Positions 1 through 35,711 of a stretch of 37,921 nt of DNA are shown one piece after another. The notes beneath the pieces are model-generated. The model had not been told where the DNA came from. It worked only from the letters and a program-made list of their open reading frames with translations, and ran no database searches. Every line of letters begins with the position of its first letter. Positions within the stretch are counted from its first letter, which is position 1. The stretch is from Phoronis australis (Eukaryota; Animalia; Phoronida): NCBI GenBank assembly GCA_002633005.1, contig NMRA01001226.1, forward strand, positions 1 through 37,921, written 5' to 3'. A program made the position numbers and the translations under genes.

Positions 1-348
1 ATGGACGATCAACGTTTAGAGCTAATTAACATACACTGGGGAAAGTGAACTTGTAAGGTGACATAAATGAAACATTGCTGACCCCTCTAAGACGCTAAAA
101 TACTTGTAATGATATCAAGAATCAACATGAGTGCTTCAGATTTTAAACGTGGCTGTAACAACAGAACATGCTTTGGCCGTTCTACGCAACTTTGAGAGTT
201 CATGAATGTAAAGCAGACGACTTTTAATTTGTCTTGCTTTTGAGACATTAAATTGCGAAAAAGATCAAGGAAATGTGTCCCTAAACATTTTAAACTATCC
301 TTATGTAAACAACTAGTTCAACTAAACAACCTGTGTGTCATTACTTAC

Positions 349-447
349 CTCATCACGTACATCTACACTGGCCTTGTTGGCCAATAACACCTTCACTGTG
401 TCTGTATGACCACACAGTGCTGCCCAGTACAGCGGTGTCCAGCCCAT
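349..447 (-). CDS. Ankyrin-repeat exon (99 nt, one repeat: MGWTPLYWAALCGHTDTVKVLLANKASVDVRDE)
   Basis: Acceptor ...attacatAG at 448-449 and donor GTaagt at 347-348. No stop codons. Matches the GxTPLHxAAxxGH...LL...A.V ANK consensus. Confidence 0.92.
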
Positions 448-805
448 CTATGTAATATATAATGGAGATGTGTGAATGGACGATCAACGTTTAGAGCTAA
501 TTAACATACACAGGGGAAAATGAACTTGTAAGGTGACATACATGAAACATTACTGACCCCTCTAAGACGCTACAATATGTGTAATGATTTCAAGAATCAA
601 GTGTTACAGATTTTAAAACGTTACAGAACATGTTACAACTCTACGCAGCTTTGGTTCTTCACCAAGAAAAGCAGACGACATTGAACTTATTGTTTTTGGA
701 CAATAAATTGTGAAAAATTATCAACAAAATGTGTTCCTAAACAGTTTTAATCATCGTGTTTGTTAACAACTAGTTCAACTAAACAACCTGTGTGTCATTA
801 CTTAC

Positions 806-904
806 CTCAGTACGTACATCTACACTGGCCTTGTTGGCCAACAACTCCTTCACTGTGTTTGTCTGACCACCCCCTGCTGCCCTGTGCAGCGGTGTCCAGC
901 CATC
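806..904 (-). CDS. Ankyrin-repeat exon (99 nt, one repeat: DGWTPLHRAAGGGQTNTVKELLANKASVDVRTE)
   Basis: Acceptor AG at 905-906 and donor GTaagt at 804-805. Carries the TPLH motif and is a paralog of exon 349-447. Confidence 0.92.
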
Positions 905-1460
905 CTATGTAATATATAATGGAGATGTGTGAATGGACGATCAACGTTTAGAGCTAATTAACATACACGGGGGAAAGTGAACTTGTAAGGTGACATAAAT
1001 GAAACCTTACTGGCCCCTCTAAGACGCTACAATACTTTCAAGAATCAAGTGTTGCAGATTTTAAAACGTTGCTGTAACAACAGAACATGTTGCAGACGTC
1101 GATTGCCAGAAATTACAGAGTTCCTGCATAACTTGACAGCGATCCCGCCATGTTGTATTTCTTCACCGATTTTCTGGCTTCGTGTTCAATATAAAGTTGT
1201 AACGTTGAATGGACGATTGTCATTAAGAATAGAAAAGTATCAACGTTAAGTCGACAAATATATTGTTGACACAATTCAAACCTCAATGTTTCATAAGATG
1301 CATATACACGGTACAGATTGAAAAATACATGTTGAAATCATGAGATATGAAAAGTGTATTTACACACAAAATATTTAGTTAAACTTCAGATAGTCTACAG
1401 CTTTTGTAATAAAGATAACATTGTCTTAATTCTAATGTCGTCTCAAGTAGTTTCTATTAC

Positions 1461-1556
1461 CTTGTCTCGCACGTTTACATCGACCCCACCCTGCACCAGC
1501 ACCCTCACCACCTCCGTCCTGCCCCTCCCTGCTGCCAGATGAAGTGCTGTGTGGTC
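1461..1556 (-). CDS. Ankyrin-repeat exon (96 nt: DHTALHLAAGRGRTEVVRVLVQGGVDVNVRDK)
   Basis: Acceptor ...ttgtttctgcAG at 1557-1558 and donor GTaata at 1459-1460. Matches the ANK consensus TALHLAA.G..EVV..L...G.DVN..D. GC-rich relative to its flanks. Confidence 0.9.
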
Positions 1557-4648: not shown

Positions 4649-4711
4649 TTAGGGTTAGTGTTTAAGGTTAAGGTGAGGGTTAGGGTTAGGTTTAGGATTA
4701 GGAATAGGGTT
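4649..4711 (+). repeat. Short degenerate (TTAGGG)n-like tract
   Basis: TTAGGGTTAGTGTTTAAGGTTAAGGTGAGGGTTAGGGTTAGGTTTAGGATTAGGAATAGGGTT. Confidence 0.7.
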
Positions 4712-5041
4712 CTCCTCTCCTCCGTCTTGAGAAGACGTGGCAGTGGTCTGGCCAGGCGAAGCGTTGCTTTCAACCCAATTTAGAACGTCTGCACGTCAAA
4801 TGAATGTCAGACAACTCAAATAGAAGAATTCTAGCTTGATGGTGATTGACCACGGTCTCTTTTATTGGTTCATTGTGATAAGGAAATGCCCCTTTAAATA
4901 TTTTCAAGAACAGGCAAATGTATCAATTTATCGCGTGTACACGTGAAAACTGTAGCCTAAGGCAAAGCGCTATTTTTCAAATTCATATTCAAATTCATGT
5001 ATTTCAACATTTAAGGCCTTGGACCACATGTTACATAAAAT

Positions 5042-6218
5042 TTACAGGATAACGCTGAGCAGCTTTTCCCTGAGAGCAGTGGCGTGAAATACAAATTTCA
5101 TTAGATTAATCTGAGCGATGGGCTCCGACATTTTCATTAGTTTTACAAATTTCTGTTTATTTGGTTCACGCCAGCACCACTCAGGTATAAATGCAGTTCT
5201 CAGAGAGCAGTACATTTTACAAACACATATAAAATGGTATTCATCTTCAATTAAGGACACACAGAAACAACACACACGTCCACATTTTGACTGAAAACGT
5301 TTAATTGAAAAACTTGCTTTCTGTGCCTGGTGAGACAAAGTTTCCGTAGCTTGCGTCCAGACTAACTTAGGTGTAAGGCAAATATCCAGGTACTTATATG
5401 ATGAGACGACATCAATTTTGTCATTTCCAAAATGCCATTTTTCGTATTTTCTCAATGGTCCGCCTTTCTAAATACCACTATTTTTGTTTTCGTAAGGTTG
5501 ACTTTCATACCCCAATCCTGACAGTATTCATGCAGAACGTTGTTGCTGTAGTTTAAATGTTGTCTCTGCACAACCAACTATATCATCAGCGTAAAGCAAC
5601 ATACAAATTTGAGGCACATTCTGATTTACGTAAATTCCGCTTATTAAAGATTCTCTTAAGTAATCAACAAACTCGTTCAAATAGTTACATAGTAAATAAA
5701 AAGGACTAAGCATACACCCTTGGCGAGTACCAATATTATTATTGAAAAAGTCAGTTAACCCACGCTCAGTTCTTACACACGCTCTTAGCTTTGAATACAT
5801 ACTTTTTATCAATTTTAAAACACTACCATGTATTCCTATTTTTTGAAGCCTATTCAACAAAAAATTATGTGAAATGCTGTCAAAGGCCCGAGAAAAATCC
5901 ACGTATATAGCATAAAATCTGCCCCTGCGCTTACTCAAGTACTTATGAACAATTCCTTGTAAGGTAAAAATTTGGTCTATTGTACTATACCTCTTTTTAA
6001 AACCAGCCTGAGCTTCGTTAAATAAGTCATTATCGTTGGCCCAACTTGTTAGACGAGCGTTTATGAGTTTCGTAAAAATTTTCCCGAGAACAGGCAGAAG
6101 TAAAATACCCCGATAATTATTTACGTCATTGACGTCCCCTTGCTTATGCAATGGAAATATTATAGCATCACACCAGGACTGAGGAACTTCCCCTGATCGT
6201 AGAGCACTATTAAAAATG
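5042..6218 (-). pseudogene. LINE ORF2 reverse transcriptase remnant
   Basis: Motifs NYRGILLL, QAGF, VDFSRAFDS, GTRQGCMLSP, LLYADD, YKYL and C-terminal CCFC..IEDEYHFICVC. Frameshifted around 5460-5530. Confidence 0.92.
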
Positions 6219-6285
6219 TTTGTACATTCCAGACTGTTGTACGTATTTCGCTTGTCCTTGAAGGCTCTGGGCCATGGCCAAACTG

Positions 6286-6534
6286 CTAGGCATTTCTGTA
6301 GATTTCATGCTTGATTTCTTTAACCATTTTCTCTGCATCATCGTAAATAAACTGTTTTCCACGCCAATAGAGCTTGTTGAATTGTATAGTTGCATTCTCC
6401 ATATTGTTTTCGTTTGAAAACGTGTACAGCTCCTTTCGTGCTTTTCTTACTTTCATCGAAAAATCTTCAGAGATATGAATTGATTCATTGGTAATTTTCT
6501 TCCTTTTGCTCATCACTTTGCGTTTGTCCTTCGA
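6286..6534 (-). pseudogene. LINE ORF1 C-terminal fragment
   Basis: KDKRKVMSKRKKITNESIHISEDFSMKVRKARKEL...IQFNKLYWRG resembles the I.I.EDF....R..RK.L...KL...G pattern of L1-like ORF1 proteins. It lies directly upstream of ORF2. Confidence 0.7.
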
Positions 6535-6659
6535 CGCTATTTTTAAGAGCAACGGTAAGAATTTTCTACTTCGTACCACAGATTTTAAGATAATAGATAA
6601 TTTACTTTAGGGTGTTGTTTTAAGAGGGAAATGTTAAAAATTTTGAATTTTCAAAGAAT

Positions 6660-9559: not shown

Positions 9560-11030
9560 AATGGACATCTTCAATCTACACATGCCATAGTCTTGAATAA
9601 CAACTTAGTCGCGTGAACCAGAACAAAACTTGTAACACCTTCTTCGCCTGTCCCCTGCTTAGATACTGCGAAAAAAGGCGAACCACCTTTTTCAGCTTAC
9701 ATCTTTACACCAAGTAGCAGCATTTTAGACCGCTAGGGAACTGTTTTGTTAGTACTGCAAAGCTATAAAAATATAACTCAACCATATTTTTCAAGTAGGA
9801 TGTAAAGCTTATATCCAGAAAAGAATCAAATTCTTACTTCCCCTCGTCAGGTCTTCATGTACATTGGACAAAACCTGTTTGATATCCGCATGGAGCTTGA
9901 TAAAACACAGACAAATTTATCAAAATTGGGGTTCAAGTCTGTGATGACTGAATGTACCAACTAAAACGATCACATTTACTGTATGCATATATTTATTAGC
10001 GCAACGATGAGTACACATGCGTTCTGGCCAACAGCCAGACCCGAACTGACCACGAGGTCTCTAACAACGATGGAAAAAACACGCCCACTCTTTAATAAAA
10101 CAGTTACCACAAAGTCAGAGTAATTTGCAGACACAAATGAGAGTGATGACTTGACTGAACTGTCCAATCCTTCGAGATCAGTATATTGCCACAATTTGCA
10201 TTGAATATTTTCAAATTATATTCAGTTGCAAAATGATTATTTCCTGAACAGTATCTGGAGTAAGATGTCCAAAGTGGGGCAAGTTACGTGTACACTAATT
10301 AAAATCACGTCAAGACAGCACCCCAAAACTCGCAGAAACTCGTTCCAAGAATAACATATTCTTCGACAGGATTGTATGGCGATGGTCCTAATGCCTAATA
10401 TCTCTGATCACCGCATATTACTAAATTAGGAGACAATCTACAACCGCGGTTAACAGGAAAGAATTTATAAATATACCATACTGCATGACAACATGCTGTG
10501 AATGTTCTAATAGTGTTTCAAATCGCTTTCAGGTATTTTCAGCAAAATTAGCAAAATAAAAGTTGAATCATTTGTTTCCGTCATAAATTAGAAACATCAG
10601 TCCAAGGATGTCTTGTTCAATAATATAGTGCATGGGGTCATATAAAATGTATGTCAACAATTCTCCGATAAAGCCTCCCCCCAAAGAGCATCAGAACTGG
10701 TTCAGCAACAAACACTTGAAAAACATGCATCAAGCAAAAAGAGAAGTCTCTAATTTTTTTTAGGTTTTCAGGAAATCGTTTTTTTTTTAATTCTTAGTGA
10801 TAAGCTTAATTATAGCATGATTTTGTGATTCAGTGAGTCCACTGTTTAAGCTATCCCTACCTAACAAAAGCATCATGTGACTTTGGAAAGACACTTGTCG
10901 ATGGGAGTGGCTTCGCCCCCAACAGACAACCTTGGCTACAGCCACGATTCTGGCTCGCAGTGTTTAGTACGCCCTGCCACACCAGAAGTTTGTTGAGACG
11001 GACAACTATACAGGCCCAAAAATTATTGGG
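9560..11030. repeat. Intronic tandem duplication, copy 1 (copy 2 at ~11150-13050)
   Basis: Matching blocks: 9567-9606~11153-11190, 10158-10296~11187-11334 and ~10370-11010~12285-13048. Copy 1 has a ~550 bp insert at ~9607-10157. Confidence 0.85.
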
Positions 11031-11149: not shown

Positions 11150-13050
11150 CCTTCTTCAATCTACCCAAGTCATAGTCTTGAATGACAACTGTCCAATCCT
11201 TTGAGATCATGCGGTATCTTACAGAAATTTGCATTGAATATTTTCAAATTCTATTCAGTTGCAAAATGATTTTTTCCTGAACAGTATCTAGAGTAATTAA
11301 GATGTTCAAAGTGGGGCAAGTTATGCGTGCACTACATGCGCGCAAGGAAGTGGGCTAAAAGGTCCGCCCCAGAGAGACAGAAAGTCCGAGAAAACGAGGC
11401 ATCAGTTCGTTAAACATGCGCAAACGCGTATTTCACAATGGCGATCCCATTTTTTTGTTTTTTTGAAGTCCGCCCAATTTTTGTTACCAAGAGGTCCACA
11501 AAGTCAGGAACTCGAGCCCCCCATATTGAAGGCTGAGTGCGCGCATGTACTAGTTTACTAGTTTGATTAACGTCCAGACAGCTCCCCCCCCCCCCTCCCC
11601 CCAGTGGAGCCCATGAGTTAACCACTGATTCAGCCTCATCGTAACAAGTAGCATCAGACGAGTCACATACAGATTTGCATAATTCTATGTATCCTGATTT
11701 TCGTCAATCCTCAAAATCTGAGAATTAAAAATGTGTCTGTGATATGTTACATAGTGAATTCTGAGGTTGCAGCATGATAAACAATTTTGCTCAGTTGAGT
11801 GTCTGAACTGAATCCTGCGCCCGCGGGTACTGCGAATGGCCAAATTACTTAAGTATGCAGAGCTTGTGTTTAAGTTTCAGCTTCTCATGGTTTACGGCAG
11901 TGATAATACGTCTGCTGTCTGTGAGTGGAATGTGGCCGAGCATTCGGTTATTTTGTTTTGTATTAAAATTTTGAAAGTTGTGTCGACCAGCCAAAATGAT
12001 GTTTTTGTTCAAAAGTCGACTCACTTTTGCCAAAGGTTTGCCTAAATATCCATAAATGGTTCCATTTAAGAACAGCACTGTCCGTGGCCTGGCATACAAA
12101 CAAGTAAATCGGTATAGAGTATCTTTGTTTGATACAAATGATGTTATCACCCTGAGTTGTGTAAACAAACTGCAGACTCTACAAGGGCAGGTCACCAGTG
12201 CAATTTCTCCTAACCTCCATTGGAGGGCGCCAGCATGCGTGTGACATCAGTGGACAAAAGGGTCTTGGACAACATTCACCATTCTGTATTAGGATGGCCC
12301 TGATTCCTTATATCACTGCTCACAGCATATCACCAAAATATGGATACATTCCACAAAAGCGGTTGATCGGAAAGAATTAAAATATACACCTTGCTGCATG
12401 ACAACATGCTTTGAGCTTTCTAACAGTGCTTAAAATCAATTGCAGGTATTTTTAGCCAAGTTAGCAAAATAAAAGACTAATCATTTGTTTCCGTTATAGA
12501 TTATAAACATCAGTACAAGGATACCTTGTTCAATAATATTGTGCATGGTGTCGTATAAAATGTATGTAAACAATTCTCCGATAAAGCCTCCCGCGAATTG
12601 GAATCAGAACTGGTTCAGCAACAACACTTGAAATAAATGCATCAAGCAAAAGGAGATGTCTCCAATTTTTTAGCCGTTCAAGAAATCGAGGCTTTTCTTC
12701 TAAGGGATAAGCCTATTTTATAGCATGAATTTTTGATTCAGTGAGTCCTCTAACCTAGTTCGCAGTATTCCCTAACAAAGGTATCATTTTTTTCAGAAAA
12801 CATTGCATTGGTAATCTATCGGAACTGGCAGGTTTTTCGCATTTCACGTTTTTCAAGATACCAGTTACATCGTTCACAATTAATTCTAGTTCCATTTTTG
12901 CTAACATCATGTATCTTTGGAAGGACACTTGCCAATGGGGGCTCTTCGCAACCAACACACGCCCTTGGCTACGGCCATGATTCTGGCTCGCAGTTATTAG
13001 TACGTGTACGCCCACCGCATACCAGAACTTGCTGAGACGGACAACTATAA
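11150..13050. repeat. Intronic tandem duplication, copy 2
   Basis: Shared blocks such as CAATTCTCCGATAAAGCCTCCC and ATCAGAACTGGTTCAGCAACAA. Copy-specific inserts at 11335-11547, ~11600-12270 and ~12785-12900. Confidence 0.85.
11335..11547. mobile_element. MITE with 10-bp TIR and TA flanks
   Basis: TA|CATGCGCGCA ... TGCGCGCATG|TA. Absent from the paralogous site near 10296 in duplication copy 1. Confidence 0.75.
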
Positions 13051-18834: not shown

Positions 18835-18930
18835 TTTGATGACAATAGGTGATTTATAATAAAGTCGTAAAAATATTACGAATTTTGCTGTGTTATACAT
18901 GTTGCTCTGAGTCGCTAAGGGTTTCGATAT

Positions 18931-19480
18931 TCAAGTCGGTAACAGGAGAACAGTGGACAGCATTAGTATATTGTAGATATTCTATTCGGTAACAGGATAG
19001 CAGTGGACAACTTTAGTATAACATAGATATTCTAGACGGTAACAGGATAACAGTGGACAATTTTAGTATAACATAGATATTCTTGTCGGTAACAGGATAA
19101 CAGTGGACAATTTTAGTATAACATAGATATTCTAGTCGGTAACAGGATAGCAGTGGACAACTTTAGTATAACATAGATATTCTAGTCGGTAACAGGATAG
19201 CAGTGGACAACTTTAGTATAACATAGATATTCTAGTCGGTAACAGGATAACAGTGGACAACGTTAGTATAACATAGCTATTCTGGTCGGTAACAGGATAG
19301 CAGTGGACAACTTTAGTATAACATAGATATTCTATTCGGTAACAGGATAACAGTGGACAACTTTAGTATAACATAGATATTCTAGTCGGTAACAGGATAA
19401 CAGTGGAAAACTTTAGTATAACATAGGTATTCTAGTCAGTAACAGGATAACAGTGGACAACTTTATTATAGTGTAGGTAT
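18931..19480. repeat. 50-bp minisatellite, 11 copies
   Basis: Unit TCTAGTCGGTAACAGGATA(A/G)CAGTGGACAACTTTAGTATAACATAGATAT in exact 50-nt register. Confidence 0.97.
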
Positions 19481-20264: not shown

Positions 20265-20675
20265 TCACTATTCACCCAGTCTTTGTTGTCCCCAATCCCC
20301 TGTTTGTTGGCAATTTTGAAGCTCTCTTCATTGGATTATTTTTGTAATAGTTTGTGAGTTCCCAAAATCTCGGGATTATAATCTCTTTAAAAGCTGGCTT
20401 GGTGCCAAAGTCAGGTGGCACGTGCTCTCCAAAGGTTTGCGACATTATAAGTTACAATTTGGAATACAATTTCACTATTCACCCAGTCTTTGTTGTCCCC
20501 AATCCCCTGTTTGTTGGCAGCTTTGAAGCTCTCTTCATTTGGTTATTTTTGTAATAGTTTGTGAGTTCCCAAAATCTCGGGATTATAATCTCTTTAAAAG
20601 CTGGGTTGGTGCCAAAGTCAGGTGGCACGTGCTCTCCAAAGGTTTGCGACATTATAAGTTACAATTTGGAATACA
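20265..20675. repeat. Recent 207-bp tandem duplication (20265-20468 / 20472-20675)
   Basis: Two copies differing at about five positions. Confidence 0.95.
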
Positions 20676-22409
20676 TATCACTTCACAGCTTACCTGTAGA
20701 TGTAAGTACACACTTTTTACCAAAAATACCCGCAGAATATTTAATCTCAACACCACGGGTATTACGTAACGAGTATTACGTAACAGCTAAAACTGAATCG
20801 CATGTATTACAACTGTTTATGCATTTTTGACATCAAGGGCTAATTTCCAGTCACCTGCTGTCAATTAGGGACAGTCACTCAGTCGTGGTTGTCTCAACAC
20901 CAAGAATTATATCGTTGAAACTAAAATTCACCGCATTGTTAAATGATTTTTTATATCAAGTTTATTGGGAAAACAATACATGACAAGTATTGACCATTGA
21001 ATTTGATGAATAATTAGACGATTGTACACTTAATGTTGACTTATTTTATCCACTTAGATGTCGGTTACCATGGTCACATTCATTGAATATAATAGCATCT
21101 AAGTCGAACAACCACAAGAACTTGGTAGATTTTCTGAACGCTTTCCTCTTAATTCTTACAGGCTATCAATAATTATTACAGATATGGTATTTAAACAAAA
21201 ATTTAATCCAACGTTGGACGCAAAGATTTCTTTTCCACACAGTTTCGACNGTCTCTCTTAAATTTTGCATACAGAACGTCCGTCGTTGGCTCTACGATAC
21301 ATGTATAAGTTTCACGACGAGGTGACAAACAGTACTCATACCAGGCCTGTATGAAATTCCGTTGTCTAAATGAGCTCATTTCACAGTGTCACGTAGGCCA
21401 AGCTGTATTTTGGCGATAGTCTTCGAACAGCTAACTGGCTTGCTACAATTAACATCTACAGTGTGCACTTCGACGTTTCGTGTTACAGTTCCGACCCAAA
21501 TCGGTATATTCTGATTTGGGTCGTTCCGTAGGCCTAACAGAATTCAGATACTGTCGACCCATATCGGAATATATTTTTGATTGAATTCAAAACGTCCAAT
21601 TGATTACAAATCCTTATATTCGGTATGTTTTCATGCAATCTAGACTTTATTTCATAGCTTTTGATTACAGATACTCAGAACGTGTGTAAAATTTTCAATC
21701 TTTTGAGGTTGACCGAGTCAAAATCGCGGCGACCACTGGTTGCAGGATTTCATGACGAATTATTTTGAAAATTAATGAATTTGATTATAATTGCTGTGTA
21801 CAAAAAGATCAGGCTAATGTGCTGTAATGTTTCCACGTATTTTGCACCAAATTAAACGGTCTTTTGTCTCCGATTCCAATATAGAAGACACCCTCGACAG
21901 CGGCCCGTATCTGAATCACTCAGCGTTCACGCCTTCGGCTTCAAGAAGGCATGAATGCAAATTTCCCGACATCAAATTTTTTTAATCTTGCAAATGACAG
22001 TTGATAATAAACATTGCGAATTTGCCTGATAATAATTCGGAAGAAGACTTTTTTCCGGCTGTTTCGACGGCTCCAGTCACACTCCCGGAGATTTCCATGT
22101 TGGCCCGTGTTGGAATGTTTGCTAAATAATTAAATAAAAAAGTATAAAAGTAATGGTTTTGATGAATTTTACTATAAATTGACATGAAATGAACAACTAA
22201 TGTGTTTCCTTGATCTGTCACGTATTTTGCACTAAATTAAACGGCCAGTCATCGCCGATTCAATACGATGGAGACACGGTGAAAGTCAATTCGTCTTAGA
22301 CTTCAATTAGTAAAAGAGCCATCTCATTTTTTTTGCGCTAAAATGAGTTTGTAATGTGGCTATTGTATTCTCAAATGCCTGCTTAATTAACGTTTGGGGT
22401 AAGCTATGA

Positions 22410-26785: not shown

Positions 26786-28544
26786 AATACGAAATGAAAA
26801 GTGCCGAGGATGTGCTCTCATGTTTTTGGAATGCGGACATCTAGTTGAATTTTTAACGAATTACAAAGTTTACTTTAAATGCAGTAGGCAATAACATTAT
26901 TCTACTTGATTAAACGCACTGTTATTGCATACATGTACTTAGGAGATTATTTTGCGAAATCAATCACATATAGATTCTAGCCTAATCCTTTATTTGTACT
27001 AGTTCCAAGACCAGCTCTAGTCCTCTGTTTCAGTGACGTAAGACAAAAAGTAATTGAAAATTTCAGGCTATGGAAGCACTTCCAGGATATGCAAATACCT
27101 GAAAATAAAAGAATCACCCTTTGGCATAGCTCTTGGAGACCCCCAGAAATTAACTGTAAATTTCAGCCAAGCACATATAAGGAGTATGAAAACGAAGGCA
27201 GGTGCTTCTCTCCTTACTTCTGTTGTTAAATTTCTGTTAGTTTGTATGAAAAACTTAGTCGAAAACAGTAGGGTGGATCGATCACTACGTGGGTGTCAGT
27301 ATTTGACTTCCTGTAGTATGTAGTCGGTAGGTGTCGCATTAGAGTAGTTCTTCATCATTTCCTGCCCTTTTATTAAGAAAATAATAGCGATTGTTATACA
27401 TGCAGCAGCGTAGCGTGTGTTTTAACCTAAAGAACATAGATTGGAACACTCTTTACGAAAATTATAGTATGTTACTAGAGAAAGTAATATTAGAAGTTTT
27501 ACGACTTGCATTGTGACATTCAAACCTTTCTACGGGCAGACGAGCGCTAATATTTTATTGGTAACCCGTTTTATACTCATGGCTAGTATCCCTTGCTATT
27601 AAATGCAGACGATCAAAGGGTGTTGTATTCTATGAACACTTTTTGAAGTTACCATCTGACGGAATGGAACCACCGTCAGACAGAACTCAGGAGGAAGAAT
27701 TTTGAGCATCTTTTGAATTGTCGAGGAATTTGGTGGGTACTCTTTGGTGTACAGGGCACGATTTCTCGCCATCCCTGCTGCAAAGTCTCAGCAAATTTGA
27801 TTTACCCTTTGAAAGGGAAAACGAAGTGAGATCAAGAATACCTACCAGATGAATTGTATACTTTTGAGTCGAGATGTGATGGAGTTTACAAAGGAAGACA
27901 AGTTGGCTACATGGGACGGGGGGGCAAACGCGAAATAAGCTCGTCTTGAAATAGAGCCACACCATTTTTTAAAATATTTGCCCACAAAACGCATACCCTT
28001 TTCGCCTTTCTCCATTGACAACATTGTTGTTTTTTTAGCGCAACAGTTGCTTTATAAGTTAAATGATCATATATATCAGCAATCGAAATTGTATTCCATT
28101 TTATTACCATTGCGGATGAGAATATTCGACTTTGTTATTTTTTGGCCTAAAAATTGCCGTCAGAAACTTTCAAATTGCAACACAATCCTTTGCTGTTGGG
28201 CTTGGTATAATTTGCTTTCATACACATGTCTTGAAGTATTCATAAAATATGATGAAAATTGCATATCTCAATCTGATGACTTTGTGGAATTTTCACTTTC
28301 AGAGAAAAGTATTCTTAAATGTTCTTGTCCGGTGCCATCGGTTAATAAATCAAAGCATAATGGTATCTCTGTTCAAACGCCATAATAAATTGCATAGCAA
28401 ACATGCTGTAAGTCTTCCAACATGGATATTGAGCTCCTTTCACGTATTACAAGTACTCAGTTCAGTCACTATAGAGATGTAATAAATGTGCAGTTATCAA
28501 TGGGCTTACGCGATGTAATATGTACTCGTTGAGCAATCAGACAG

Positions 28545-29135
28545 CAACAGATAAGCTTGAGAAAACCATATCTAGTCTGAATGCTCGTCTCACTAGAGAA
28601 TCTCCACACGTTGGAGCCACTTCGCCTACTCTCTTCAAAGTGTTCATCGACTGCATATTAAGGCAGCTGCTGGATAGCATACTTGTAGAGGCCTGAGCCA
28701 ATGAAATTGTCTTATATGTGTCAAATGTTGATGGTTGCACGTATACTTGTACAGGCCTATGCCTATGACATTGTCTTCAGTCTGTCAAGTGCTGATGCTT
28801 GCATATGTATATGTAATTGGACAGACCTATGCCAATGTCTAAGGGCCCCCATGGAAAGCATTGTGAATTGATGGCGTTACCCTCATCGTTAATATTACAT
28901 TAATAATAGATAAATAAGGCCCATGCCAATGACATTCTTCTGTGTGTCAAGTGTTGATGCTTACACGAGCCACAGTATTGTCTATTGTTATTCATTGGAC
29001 CGAGGCAATTAACTTGAGGATCAACACCAGTAAAATAAAATGGTTATAGTATTTACATTTGCGGCTGACTGCAATTCCCCTCACTGGATCACAATTTGTC
29101 AAGTCCGTTCCTTACCTGGCGATTCGGTTCCCAGT
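28545..29135 (+). pseudogene. Highly decayed non-LTR RT fragment (paralog at ~33965-34555)
   Basis: (A)PQVGATSPTL(F)KVFIDCILKQLLDNILVKACANDIVL resembles PQG..LSP.LF..FID...YADD. It is followed by HWTEAINLRINTSKIK and VKSVPYLAI, resembling RT domains 6-7. Confidence 0.6.
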
Positions 29136-29149
29136 GTACTTTAATTAAG

Positions 29150-30170
29150 CCTTAGTATTTTTGCAGTTGTGGGTGACATCTCATACACTTTTACCAATGG
29201 TTTTGTAATAGAGAGATAACGATACTTTTTCCATATCCTGACAGACTTGATGCATTCTCCTCTATCTAATGGCCACGCCATTAAAACACATTTACAGTCG
29301 TCGGCACATATCAACGCTTCGCTCCTGCATTTCAACATATAATTTGGATACATTAGATCATAATATAATTCAGAAATAGAACATTTTCTTCGAGCAATAT
29401 TAACATCGTATAAATGAGTTATCATCGACACAATGCAAAACAGTAAACACAATATATGCACGCGTAGCTACACAAATTATGCAGACATTTTTTATAATAC
29501 ACTTATATCGGTAACAAAAATGTACTCAATCCATGACGGCCAGTCATAATGTACTCAAATCACGACTGCCAGTTATAATGCACTCAATTCATGACTGCCA
29601 GTTATAATGTACTTTTGTAAAATGATAGGCTGATATGGAGACATTTGGCAACTTCTTTGCGAGTACATTAATGACGTCATTCAACAAGTCATTAGAATCA
29701 AAAATTTTAGAATGATGGTTATGAATCTGCTTTTGATTGTTGCTTATGATGCCCTTGATAGCGACTAAACCTTCCAAGGTGAGGAACAACCGAACTTTTA
29801 AATACCAATGATTGTACAAAATACGACTAACAGGTCGATTTGGGCTCATCCATTCTTGAAGAGGAGATACAAATTTGGAAAACTGCGTCTGAATTTTTCA
29901 AGCTATTATCAATCATGCTTAATTGGTGGCGTCTGTACTGGGTGTACATGTATGTTAAGGGATAGCGGATAGAGGATGCCGTTAGGAGGAGCAACTGCAT
30001 GATTTAGAGTACAACTCCTGTTGAAGCTGTACAATCGGCATGACAAAAACTTTTCATTATGTTTGACCGTGCCCCTGGAGGAGGTGGAGGGGGGCTGTTC
30101 TGGGCCTCAAAGTCTGCCTTTGTAATTGTCCCTATGTTACTGTCACAATGTCATCTTGACGTGTCATATC
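29150..30170 (-). pseudogene. Possible highly decayed PIF1-like helicase relic (paralog at ~34570-35590)
   Basis: Colinear motif traces across frameshifts: TASTG, LSMID, VFKS..PH...HRQ, L.KKLP....YH, HQACQDMEKV. Recognised by eye only. Confidence 0.35.
29519..29613. repeat. 29-bp tandem repeat, ~3.3 copies (also at ~34942-35036)
   Basis: Unit AATG(T/C)ACTCAATTCATGACTGCCAGTTAT. Confidence 0.9.
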
Positions 30171-30305
30171 ATTTGTTTGTGTCTTTTCTTTGTAGTATCA
30201 AAACTTCTTTTTAACATTAAATAGTTTTATTTGAGTTGATAAAATTGTATACGAGTATAAAAAATTTTGAATGGAAATGAGTCATTAACGTTCACAACTA
30301 CATNT

Positions 30306-33300
30306 GTTACAAAGTAATTCTCAGATGTGCTCAATATTAAACAGAAAGCCAGTGAAGAACAATGTTGTTGTCTTTACCTCCTTTTAGTATATTGATTTAC
30401 TGTAACAGTACAAGATACAGGTAGTGTACACTTAATATCTAGTCTTTTTCTTGCCATTTCCCAACAAAAGCTTGACGTGATGCATTATTTTTCTCTTAGT
30501 AGATTTTGCACACAAGAACTCATTTTAACTGAAGCCATTTTGTACTAATGGATGATTTTCATATCTTTGTGAAGGGGAAATTTCCACCCTCCCTAGAAAT
30601 GTTTTGAAGGAGCTACAGATATAATAACCATGTTGAGACGAACCATGTTTGAAGTTGACTGCGGTTTAGGTGGTAATAAGATATAATAAGGTAGTTCTTT
30701 AAACTAGCTGACCTATTTGAGTTACATAATTATTTTATTTCAGGTACATACTTACATCCATACTCTAGATGCCTGCAAGCAAGACTTTTTCACTGTTTGC
30801 TGTTTAACGCTAGATGTGATAAGGCAGGTGAAAGCTAGGGATCCACAAATAACGGAAGCTTTCCTACGCTCCGACAATGCCAATTGTTACCATTCTGCCG
30901 CCCTTCTGATTCATTTGTTCTACATAACTGGTAACACCGGCATCTCCATTCTGCGCTACGACTTTAGTGAAAGTCAGAAGGGAAAAGATATCTGTGACAG
31001 GAAAATCGCACCCTTGAAGGCCCATGCCAAGTACTTCGTCAATGAAGGCAACAACGTTCAAAATGCGGTCGACCTGAAACGTGCGCTAGAGTCTAGAGGA
31101 GATGTCAAAGGCTGTTAGGTGTCGTCCTGTAGTGTGAATGCCCCAAAGGTCCTTCCCAAGCACAGTATCCCAGGGAAAAGTTTGCTGACAAACTTTGAGT
31201 ATTCCGTAGATGGCATTCGAGCATGGAAGGCCCATAGAGTAGGGGAGGGAAAACTTGTCATCAACAAATCATGTAAACTGTTGCCTCTGAAAAGTCTTGA
31301 CCTTGCAACACTCGAGTATTTTACAACTCCAAGGGTTGAGTCGGGGCTGGTATCCCGTGAACGTCATACGAAGTTCACATGCACACACTGTGGGTGCTCG
31401 AAATCTTTTCCTACAGATGCTGAGCTAAGTGAGCACTTGGATGTTGGTGCTCATTCATCATCCCTCCAGAACGAGACTCAGTTCGACCACATTTCAAGAC
31501 AATCTGAGATTTTATCCACTACCACAGCTGAGTTGTCTGCCGTTTACGTTGTTGATCAAGTCGCCGCAGGATTGGGCCCTGAAAAGTACTAGAAAAGCGG
31601 TCCGCTTCTCTGAGAAGGTAAAGACTTAACCAGTGATATATTTTCTGAAGGTGAACAGTCAGGCAGAAAACAACAGCCAGCTGAGGTTGTGAAAAGATGA
31701 TGCGAGAAGCCAGGAATAAGCAAAGAAAAGTTTTCTCCTCTGTAGAGTGGCTGTCGGAGTAGCAGATTGCTGGATTTTTTCCCGTATGGTTGCCGCGTCT
31801 CGAATCGGAAATATTCAGAATAATGAAGATGCTGATGCTGCTGCTGCCCACGAGTTTGCCTCAATGATTGAGTTGAGCTTGAAGTCATGAATGAGTTATC
31901 ATCATAAAGTGTAGGAAATTATGAACATGTTTTAGTTGTTGTCTATTCTTACGATATTGTTGTGGTCATCATTATCGTAGCTAGGGGACTGGGGTCCACC
32001 CTGCGCGAAATTGGAAAAAATGGAATATGACGTGAATTAGGGGCTTCCATGGGGGAGAGATTTGAGTGGTGGCCGTTTGGGGAAAATAATCCAAGCCACT
32101 GATGGTCAACATTGAAATCTTCTGTCACTTTTACTAGCGTTTTTTGTTTTATGTTCAGTTTGAGACTGGTAAAGCATACTTTTTACATGATTGATTCTCT
32201 TGAAACTACTGAGATTTTTAAAGAAGTGATTATCTAGTTTTGAGAAACGTCTATCTTAGACATGTGTACTGAGCAAAATAAAAAGACTTTGTGTTTCAGT
32301 AGCTCTTGTTTTCTTCAAACAAAATGCAGTTTTTGAAGTGTTGTGTAGAAATGTATCATACACTAAACCTAGCATACCTTCAAGAAACTGTGATTTTGAG
32401 TCCCCGCATGAACGGAATTTACATGTTGTGAAACTTTTAGCTGGTAAGTCGCAACAACACCCAATTGCTTAAATACTGGTTTGGAAAGCCGGTATCTTGG
32501 ATATCACTGAAAGTATTATGTTTTCAATCGTAAATATCCGTACGTGTTATTTTTCTGAAATTGCAAATTCCACTGGCGCGCTGCCACCATGCTCGGTCGC
32601 TTTTGTGTAGTAAAAGAAGCATTGCGTGACACTTTGTATGTCCAATAACACGGCACTTCTGCTCGTATCCACCGTCCTCTTTTCACGTGTGATCTCGAAG
32701 ATCTTGATTAGTTTTAGTATAAACTTTACTAATGGTTTTATAGGACTTTTTCATGCGTATATACAGGGATTTGTCCTGGAGGTCTGAAAATGGTCCAGCA
32801 TGCACTGCAGGCAGTGTGTGGGATTGTTAGTCAGTTACGGTGTTTGAAAACTGGCCAAGCAATGGGTAATGGGCACCCTTAATAAGAATAAAACCTGCTT
32901 CCCTGAAGTATGAGATGGTGATGGGGTTGTATTATTAACTCATAAGTTCATTAAAATTGACTTTTTTGATTTCTGTAATCCTATAACAAATTTTTATTTT
33001 TGCACCCGCAAAATTGAAAATCCGCGAAGAAGAAATCTCTCATACAGCTTCCCATGATCTCCTTCGTCACTAATGTAGCAAAACGAATGATATTTGTTCT
33101 ATTTGGCATCTTGGTCGATAGAGAATTGCACAATCGAGTAGCGCCTCCTAGAGTCTTTTACTCAAACTGACAGTCACAGATTGGCAGAAAAATGTGTTAA
33201 GTGAGTTATGTAAAAAACTGACAGCACAAAAACTATGAAAGAGACAAGATTTTTTATTCTTGTGTTGGACTGAACAAAGACAGCAGTAACAGGTGGAAGT

Positions 33301-33735
33301 TAGCTCATGTTCCAAAAGAATCCGATATAGATTTGGGAGAGTGATAAAAATGCGTAAAAATGGCCTTAATAATAAGCAGTGAAAATGACATTTTTGTAGG
33401 CTAAAATGAGAGGACATAAAAAATCAAAAAATCCATCCGATCTAGTTTTTCTTGTACGTTATTCTTTCTTCTTTCTGCTATATAGTTATTTTTTCTATAG
33501 CGTGAAGCAATGATGTGTTGTTGCTGACAAAATGTCACCTACTTCCAAGTACTATTATTTGCTATTTTTCGGAAAAAGTACAAAGTGGTCGCAAAAAGGG
33601 TTTAAAAAAACTCGGAAACTCTTAAAAATTCAGGCTCAGGTTTCTTTTGACAAGGCCAGCTGACATGCTAAGTTTAAAAAAAATTGGTGATTTTGCATAT
33701 ATAGCCCACCATCTGGTTTTTATATGGAATTGCTC
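30306..33735 (+). mobile_element. Sola3-type DNA transposon, right half only
   Basis: Contains a transposase remnant. The terminus ...TATATGGAATTGCTC is followed by TTAA (33736-33739), consistent with the GAG...CTC ends and TTAA target known for Sola3. No matching left end was seen in the window. Confidence 0.72.
30744..31907 (+). pseudogene. Sola3-like transposase, 3' exon remnant
   Basis: Acceptor ttttatttcAG at 30742-30743. Motifs FLRSDNANCYH, RYDFSESQKGKDICDRKIAPLKAH and VNEGNNV, a C2H2 finger (CTHCGCSKSF.....LSEHLDVGAH) and WALKSTRKAVRFSEKVK. In-frame TAG at 31116-31118 and later frameshifts. Confidence 0.8.
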
Positions 33736-35711
33736 TTAAATGTTCTTCCTCGGTGCCATCAGTTAATAAATCAAAGCATAATGGTATCTCTGTTCAAACG
33801 CCACAATAAATTGCATAGCAAACATGCTGTACGTCTTCCAACATGGATATTGAGCACCTTTCACGTATTACAAGTACTCAGTTCAGTCACTAGAGAGATG
33901 TAATAAATGTGCAGTTATCAAAGGGCTTACGCGACGTAATATGCACTCGTTGAGCAATCAGACAGCAACAGATAAGCTTGAGAAAACCATATCTAGTCTG
34001 AATGCTCGTCTCACTAGAGATGCTCCTCAAGTTGGAGCCACTTCGCCTACTCTCATCAAAGTGTTCATCGACTGCATATTAAAGCAGCTGCTGGATAACA
34101 TACTTGTAAAGGCCTGTGCCAATGACATTGTCTTATGTGTGTCAAATGTTGATGGTTGCACATATACTTGTACAGGCCTATCCCTATGATATTGTCTTCA
34201 GTCTGTCAAGTGTTGATGCTTGCATATGTACATGTAATTGGACAGACCTATGCCAATGTCTAGGAGCCCCCATGGAAAGCATTGTGAATTGATGGCGTTA
34301 CCCTCATCGTTAATATTACCTTAATAATAGATGCATAAGGCCCATGCCTATGACATTCTTCTGTGTGTCAAGTGTTGATGCTTACACGAGCCACAGTATT
34401 GTCTATTGTTATTCATTGGACCGAGGCAATTAACTTGAGGATCAATATCAGTAAAATAAAATGGTTATAGTATTTACATTTGCGGCTGAATGCAATTCCA
34501 CTCACTGGATCACAATTTGTCAAGTCTGTTCCTTACCTGGCGATTCGGTTCCCAGTGTGCTTTAATTAGGCCTTAGTATTTTTGCAGTTGTGGGTGACCT
34601 CTCATAAACTTTTACAAATGGTTTTGTAATAGAGAGATAACGATACTTTTTCCATATCCTGACAGGCTTGATGCATTCTCCTCCATCTAATTGCCACACC
34701 ATTAAAAACACAGTTACAGTCTTGGGCACATATCAACGCTTCGCTCCTGCATTTCAACATATAATTCGGATACATTAGATCAAAATATAATTCAGAAATA
34801 GAACATTTTCTTCGAGCAATATTAACATCGTATAAATGAGTTATCATCGACACAATGGAAAACAGTGAAAACAATATATACACGCGTAGCTACGCAAATT
34901 ATGCAGACATTTTTATATAATCCACTTATATCGGTAACAGAAATGTACTCAATCCATCGCGGCCAGTCATAATGTACTCAAATCATGACTGCCAGTTATA
35001 ATGCACTCAATTCATGACTGCCAGTTATAATGTACTTTTGTAAAATGATAAGCTGCTATGGAGACATTTGGCAACTTCTTTGTGAGTGCATTAATGACGT
35101 CATTCAGCAAGTCATTAGAACCAAAAATTTTAGACTTATGGTTATGAATCTGCTTTTGATTGTTGCCTATGAGGCCCTTGATAGCGACCAAACACCCACA
35201 AGGTGAGGAACAACCGAACTTTTAAATACCAATGATTGTACAAAATACGACTAACAGGTCGATTTGGGCACATCCACTCTTGAAGAGGAGATGCAAATTT
35301 GGAAAACTGCGTCTGAATTTTTCAAACTATTATCAATCATGCTTAATTTGAGGGTTCTGTACTGGGTGTACATGTATGTTAAAGAATAGCGGATAGAGGA
35401 TGCCGTTAGGGGGAGCAACTGCATGATTTAGAGTACAACTCCTGTTGAAGCTGTACAATCGGCATGACAAAAACTTTTCATTATGTTTGACCGTGCCCCT
35501 GGAGGAGGGGGGGGCCTGTTCTGGGACTCTAAATCCGCCTTTGTAATTGTCCCGATTTACTGTCACATTGTCATCTTGACGTGTCATATCATTTGTTTAT
35601 GTCTTTTCTTTGTACTATCAAAACTTCTTTTTAATATTAAATAGTTTTATTTGAGTTGATAAAATTGTATACGAGTATAAAAACTATTTATTAACTTTCA
35701 CAACTACATCT
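33736..35711. repeat. ~2 kb direct repeat, copy A'
   Basis: Paralog of 28315-30305. Starts at the TTAA abutting the Sola3 right terminus. Confidence 0.95.

Follow-up and report, generated by a model that had tools for sequence, protein, structure and literature searches.

Ankyrin exon cassettes and the remainder of the window

The window, by which we mean the whole 37,921-nt stretch of DNA that was analysed (GC about 38%), contains at its left end (1-1556, minus strand) the beginning of a gene for an ankyrin-repeat protein, made of one-repeat, in-frame exon cassettes. The features of this region are as follows, beginning with the most upstream ankyrin exon.

1461..1556, minus strand: divergent ankyrin exon, 96 nt, phase 0, 32 amino acids; Pfam Ank E 9.2e-10
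905..1460, minus strand: intron, 556 nt, GT-AG; common to paralogues, with variants in DNA and RNA runs
806..904, minus strand: cassette exon A, 99 nt, phase 0, one ankyrin repeat
448..805, minus strand: cassette intron, 358 nt; ends conserved between units, middle diverged
349..447, minus strand: cassette exon B, 99 nt, phase 0; the reference for family-wide variation
1..348, minus strand: third cassette intron, truncated at the window edge some 28 nt short of where the next exon is predicted
761..805, with a copy at 304-348, minus strand: conserved donor-side flank, 1 mismatch per 45 nt between units
905..1033, with a copy at 448-576, minus strand: conserved acceptor-side flank, 5 mismatches per 129 nt between units

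Exons 349-447 and 806-904 were each found to be 99 nt long, to lie between AG and GTAAGT, to open in phase 0 and to encode one ankyrin repeat. The Pfam Ank profile (PF00023) matched these exons with E values of 3.1e-10 and 1.3e-8, and exon 1461-1556 with 9.2e-10; the respective scores of 40.2, 35.1 and 38.7 bits lie above the curated cut-off of 21.1, which places all three exons among the ankyrin repeats. The offset between the tandem units is 457 nt, followed by one of 475 nt to a partial third unit beginning at base 1. A first-pass annotation made from the sequence had described tandem units of about 460 bp, each carrying a 99-nt phase-0 exon that encodes one repeat, and this description was borne out by the 457-nt offset and the Pfam matches. 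Because the partial third unit starts at base 1, the next cassette exon would be expected about 28 nt to the left of the window. Exon 1461-1556 precedes the other ankyrin exons of the window and lies outside the tandem unit. In intron 905-1460, the 150-190 nt on the acceptor side are homologous to the cassette introns, whereas the donor side is not.

These three were the only ankyrin exons found in the six frames of the 37,921-nt window using tblastn and a profile from 672 repeats, and a search of 1557-37921 yielded neither more ankyrin exons nor a convincing upstream exon. Inverted or inactivated repeat exons were absent from the introns and from the rest of the window, and neither a NACHT nor an effector domain was found within it. 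The C-terminal part of the ankyrin gene lies to the left of the window.

The remainder of the window consists of non-coding DNA with transposon relics. A decayed LINE with a piece of reverse transcriptase (RVT_1, E 5.6e-24) is located at 5045-6606 on the minus strand, 3.5 kb upstream of the ankyrin exons; among the 120 matches listed, only two of its relatives carry a species name, a carp and a sea-slug, both animals. Taken with the GT-AG introns and the GC content of about 38%, this makes an invertebrate animal the likely host. At 30711-31589 (plus strand), there are broken reading frames that have no Pfam match and probably represent a transposon relic, the first piece scoring 0.95 with DUF7869 clusters (Atlas). 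This relic is flanked by a 1.95-kb direct duplication (28313-30263 and 33734-35683, 94.7% identical) that contains 64-bp and 29-bp tandem repeats. There are also a 50-bp minisatellite of 10.9 copies and a 207-bp two-copy tandem repeat (18926-19470 and 20265-20682), and a 460-bp dispersed direct repeat (10381-10840 and 12293-12748, 82% identical) with additional shared pieces nearby. Finally, an inverted repeat of about 125 nt (2381-2502 and 4855-4981, 90% complementary, 2.35 kb apart) adjoins a TTAGGG-like run at 4649-4711 and probably represents non-autonomous elements.

Variation between the window exons and across the cassette family

The two cassette exons, 349-447 and 806-904, were compared and found to differ at 14 nt located in 10 of the 33 codons, with nine residue changes and one silent change (codon 21); the encoded repeats share 24 of 33 residues (73%). 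The first-pass annotation had given the same counts, and every codon change that it named is present. When evaluated by dN/dS, the pair showed an excess of replacement changes (a ratio of 3.7) that was not significant (Fisher p 0.11). Exon codon k was mapped to repeat position k+2 on the scaffold DxxGxTPLHxAA... given in the available part of PMC4308713, so that codons 1, 8, 11 and 12 correspond to repeat positions 3, 10, 13 and 14, and codon 32 to position 1. Codons 1, 11, 12 and 32 had all been assigned to the binding groove. The assignment holds for the first three, but position 1 is the framework Asp of the consensus and is not randomised (available part of PMC4308713). Three of the six library-type codons fall among the nine that changed between the window exons (p 0.19). 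On their own, the two window exons do not demonstrate selection.

From one unit to the other, 14 of the 99 exon nt are changed, as against 6 of 174 nt in the adjoining intron ends (p 0.0016, with boundaries chosen post hoc). Comparison of the whole cassette intron with the next gave 39 mismatches in 325 aligned bases (12%), located mostly in mid-intron and about equal to the exon divergence.

The wider family was evaluated in public reads comprising four DNA runs of one sample, three raw RNA runs and one contig run, all with the same species label, and one run from another organism. On one cassette (322-475), at an identity of at least 80%, there were 442 RNA reads in run X6, 588 RNA reads in run X8 and 119 DNA contigs in run X1. 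Most of these reads and contigs were less than 95% alike to the cassette, and a given variant was found in up to 30 distinct X1 contigs. Therefore, this cassette is one of many within a single sample. The summed X1 contig depth was about 2000 over the acceptor flank, relative to about 15 for a single-copy allele; although it hints at a hundred or so cassettes, this value is not a copy number. In a second subfamily, represented by 261 reads in X8, only the first half of the exon is similar; the second half differs and its alignments are clipped at base 391. The constancy of codons 22-31 is therefore valid for one subfamily only. Run X5, from the other organism, had a single contig with a depth of 2 over 403-475, which is too weak for a family in a second species. 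When metagenome contigs were scanned for exact copies of the two conserved intron flanks, no match was obtained.

Family variation was scored for variants present at 8% or more, using the 80% identity cut-off and alignments clipped at the exon ends and at base 391. The result is an expression-weighted, read-level proxy that pools paralogues and alleles, as distinct from a tree-based dN/dS. Forty of the 49 variants were listed, of which 38 were exonic, and 17 of the 33 codons were without any. Codons 1, 3, 8, 11 and 12 had four listed variants each and codon 33 had two; these hot codons correspond to repeat positions 3, 5, 10, 13, 14 and 2, all on the binding face. Moderate variation was also found among the listed variants at repeat positions 1, 16, 18, 19 and 21-23, and position 33 was without a variant. 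With either a-priori set of positions, 15-16 variants per run fell in 6 of the 33 codons (p 0.0003-0.002 in the worst case, in which all unlisted variants were placed outside these codons).

The first and second positions of the six library-type codons were variable at 10 of 12 sites in X8 and at 9 of 12 sites in both X1 and X6, whereas the four-fold silent sites in framework codons were variable at 2 of 15 in X8, 2 of 15 in X1 and 1 of 15 in X6 among the listed variants. The contrast holds when the unlisted variants are placed at silent sites in X8 (3 of 15, p 0.0016) and X1 (4 of 15, p 0.017), but it is lost in the worst case for X6, where eight unlisted variants give 9 of 12 versus up to 7 of 15 silent sites (p 0.14). 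The mean site diversity for the listed variants was 0.37-0.40 in the library-type codons and 0.02-0.03 at the silent sites. No indels inside exon 349-447 were listed in the family reads, and the acceptor flank 448-475 had no variant among the 40 of 49 listed. Therefore, although diversification on the binding-face codons, as claimed in the first-pass annotation, is not significant from the two window exons, it is supported by the family-wide reads: the silent sites, framework and intron ends are near-fixed while the binding-face codons are hypervariable. By the same read-level proxy, hypervariable sites lie on the concave binding face, in the manner of fungal HIC repeats, at positions 2, 3, 5, 10, 13 and 14.

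Such a pattern might be expected of an ordinary recent exon or gene duplication under relaxed constraint, the binding face varying because ankyrin repeats tolerate change there. In line with this explanation, the same positions are of high entropy in unrelated ankyrin repeats (846 repeats from unrelated fetched proteins; also the available part of PMC4308713), whole-repeat exons are frequent in repeat proteins (available part of PMC3995336), and the pairwise comparison of the window exons gave no significant result. However, the hot sites are about ten times more variable than the silent sites, and relaxed sites should not exceed silent ones. Furthermore, equally tolerant positions off the binding face are without a variant here: position 17 (codon 15) has an entropy of 2.56 in the 846 unrelated repeats, which is as variable as the binding positions, yet no variant was found there in the cassette family among those listed. 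Tolerance alone therefore does not explain the hot spots, and we consider relaxed constraint an unlikely explanation.

Transcription, splicing and the origin of the variants

The numbers of RNA reads on bases 1-1800 were 789, 767 and 1312 in the three runs, and the first mate nearly always matched the plus strand; in the majority of stranded libraries, this orientation indicates minus-strand RNA. Reads at least 99% alike to the window numbered just 13 of 789, 7 of 767 and 15 of 1312. In X6, the RNA depth changed from about 18 to 255 at the left edge of exon 349-447 and from about 200-300 to 43 at the right edge, and these sharp steps support the exon boundaries. Joints were also found in which the end of a cassette exon is connected to that exon's own start, and these are exon-to-exon splices of family members. 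The 12 junction types listed, of 26, were read by hand, and all were in frame: seven were exact, four were one codon longer and one was two codons shorter. The two-codon-shorter form of the repeat was found in 25 reads in X6, and the length variants sit at the exon joint, in the beta-turn. In the listed junctions, codon 1 encodes M, D, W, V, Y, L or F, codon 33 encodes E, G, K, R, D or V, and codon 3 encodes W, Q or M. Several further first-exon types were revealed by loose read ends. The modular, in-frame cassettes that had been postulated from the window thus exist in the family as transcribed and spliced units, with 12 of 12 listed junction types in frame. The window's own joints, 447-806 and 904-1461, were absent among the 15 joints listed of 47.

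Intron RNA from the minus strand was also abundant in X8, with a depth of about 86-177 at 1081-1440 and of up to 160 at 481-660, comparable to that of the exons; it consists of abundant unspliced or intron-retaining transcripts of paralogues. A separate observation concerns 822-862 (plus strand), a 41-nt piece of exon 806-904 that was the only part matched by 59-83 reads in each of the three RNA runs. In these reads, the piece has fixed, unrelated flanks (agreement 1.0) that are absent from the window. It seems that a fragment of the exon has been captured by a different transcript, which runs antisense to the cassette family and could be a source of small RNAs.

One joint, 444-1464 (12 reads in X6), connects a variant of exon 1461-1556 to a cassette exon resembling the window's second. 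We rejected it as proof of exon skipping because its letters differ from the window on both sides, and therefore it derives from another allele or paralogue. A rearranged form matching this joint was present in DNA run X1 as joint 609-1057, which may represent the loss of one unit or, equally, a paralogue with a converted intron end.

These data bear on the possibility that the diversity is made mainly by alternative splicing. In that case, individual cassettes would be selected or left out of transcripts, and the conserved ends of the introns would act as splicing signals and not as recombination arms. Every exon is in phase 0, joint 444-1464 does link the first exon to a cassette like the window's second, and alternative splicing occurs in brown-algal LRR exons (available part of PMC11378527). 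However, the letters of this joint and its matching form in DNA argue against it, and alternative splicing alone leaves the codon-level hypervariability unexplained, which makes this explanation quite unlikely.

Joints 609-1057 and 1036-304 were both present in DNA, and the junction set of X8 differed from those of X6 and X7, alleles and paralogues being inseparable in this comparison. Among the eight cassette-to-cassette joints listed, seven recurred at similar counts in X6 and X7 with 0-1 reads in X8, and the eighth was found in X8 only. Fixed gene sets, either heritable or specific to a tissue, would account for the seven joints common to X6 and X7 better than random change in somatic cells. 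It was also found that the variant letters in RNA are mostly present in the X1 DNA contigs, the exceptions being 3 of the 40 variants listed.

Somatic rearrangement or hypermutation of the cassettes would provide each individual with an acquired repertoire. Such a process would be consistent with the very many junction and codon variants per sample, the multi-base changes at hot codons and the X8 junction set unlike those of X6 and X7, and it has been proposed for Ectocarpus (available part of PMC3341825). The recurrence of joints in X6 and X7 and the presence of most RNA variant letters in DNA argue against it, and the available part of PMC11378527 reports no somatic recombinant even in brown algae. 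We therefore regard a somatic origin as extremely unlikely. It also seems quite improbable that there is a genome-wide pool of ankyrin cassettes, with intron ends as swap arms, from which rows are assembled during life, either somatically or by combinatorial splicing; if this were true, such a natural DARPin library would be an anticipatory receptor repertoire.

A probable heritable repertoire and its relation to known systems

The reading that we favour, and consider reasonably probable, is that the cassette copies are kept alike by recombination while their binding-groove codons are diversified by selection, resulting in a heritable repertoire of binders. Homogenisation is suggested by the near-fixed state of the silent sites and intron ends in many copies, and diversifying selection by the multi-state binding-face codons. 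An equivalent regime is known from fungal ANK arrays (available part of PMC4986451). A corollary of this reading is that gene conversion or unequal crossing-over through the common intron ends would homogenise and shuffle the cassettes, and that positive selection would diversify about six codons facing the binding groove, thereby producing the hot spots. The variants would arise in the germline and not somatically, and the rows of cassettes might serve as a heritable library of binders against changing targets, for example pathogens. Because of the phase-0 symmetry, whole cassettes can be gained, lost or exchanged in frame, which is a property of the design and not an observed event.

The protein may be an intracellular sensor of non-self or of pathogens, with a signalling domain encoded to the left of the window, and we judge the chances for and against this role to be about even. 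The window contains no effector domain, and no close relative was found among 361 fetched proteins, which yielded generic ankyrins only (best match 21 of 33 identical residues); a sensor role is therefore proposed by analogy only. The same regime of homogenisation and diversification could instead reflect a non-immune conflict, such as allorecognition, gamete recognition or the control of selfish elements. The window names no ligand, tissue or effector, and fungal HIC receptors act in allorecognition (available part of PMC13449251), both of which would accommodate such a role. However, direct evidence for it is lacking and the closest analogues in exon design are candidate pathogen receptors (available part of PMC3341825), and so we think a non-immune role very unlikely.

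The cassette family bears on how invertebrates, in the absence of antibodies, generate diverse repertoires for recognition. The diversification signal in the cassette family is strong and directly testable, and there are close analogues in fungi and brown algae. With units this short and RNA this plentiful, germline diversification could be told from somatic or splicing-based diversification by long-read sequencing of a single animal.

Exons of 99 nt occur in vertebrate ankyrin genes. Exons that span whole repeat units are common in repeat-protein genes (available part of PMC3995336), and animal ankyrin proteins usually change their number of repeats readily (available part of PMC5100051). The cassette family resembles ordinary animal repeat-protein genes in that the exon is the repeat unit and its gain or loss keeps the frame, but most such human arrays are long conserved (available part of PMC3995336), whereas here the intron ends are near-identical and the binding codons hypervariable. 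No animal ankyrin family with both the cassette design and a hypervariable face was found in the open full-text literature, a scope that leaves subscription papers and supplements outside.

The hot spots of the family coincide with positions that engineers randomise in ankyrin libraries. In the classic DARPin set, these are positions 2, 3, 5, 13, 14 and 33. The ANK-N5C library randomises positions 2, 3, 5, 10, 13 and 33, with position 14 as framework (available part of PMC4308713). The cassette family is like these designed libraries (ANK-N5C, PMC4308713; DARPins, PMC8683736; available parts) in having a fixed scaffold with variation at 2, 3, 5, 10, 13 (and 14), and unlike them in being natural and genomic and in having no variant at position 33.

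The ANK arrays of fungal NLRs have five positively selected sites, mostly on the concave face, and are polymorphic in repeat number (available parts of PMC4986451 and PMC13449251). As in the accessible account of Podospora anserina Pa_3_8560, the cassette repeats are near-identical with few hypervariable positions, located in the inner helix and beta-hairpin. Both systems include some repeats of non-canonical length, and in the accessible accounts of the fungal NLRs concerted evolution and repeat exchange have been proposed. The difference is that here every repeat has an exon to itself and the intron is duplicated along with it, and that the host is likely an animal. Relative to the fungal HIC criterion of a 2014 paper (more than 85% identity over at least 100 residues), the two window repeats are identical at 24 of 33 residues (73%), the full array lying outside the window.

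The ROCO-LRR and NB-ARC-TPR candidate receptors of brown algae likewise have one repeat per symmetric exon and form a multigene family, and the cassette family also resembles them in its probable selection on the binding face and probable recombination within and between loci (available parts of PMC3341825 and PMC11378527). In contrast to those receptors, the repeat type here is ankyrin only and not LRR or TPR, the exon is 99 nt in phase 0 as against 72 nt in phase 2 for the ROCO LRR (in the accessible descriptions), and this window has no inverted or dead repeat exons. Because the repeat type differs from the algal ones and a nucleotide-binding domain would be outside the view of the window, we have not filed the family in either known class. 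Taken together, these comparisons indicate that the cassette family joins the hypervariable ANK regime of fungi with the one-repeat-one-exon layout of brown algae, and likely does so in an animal.
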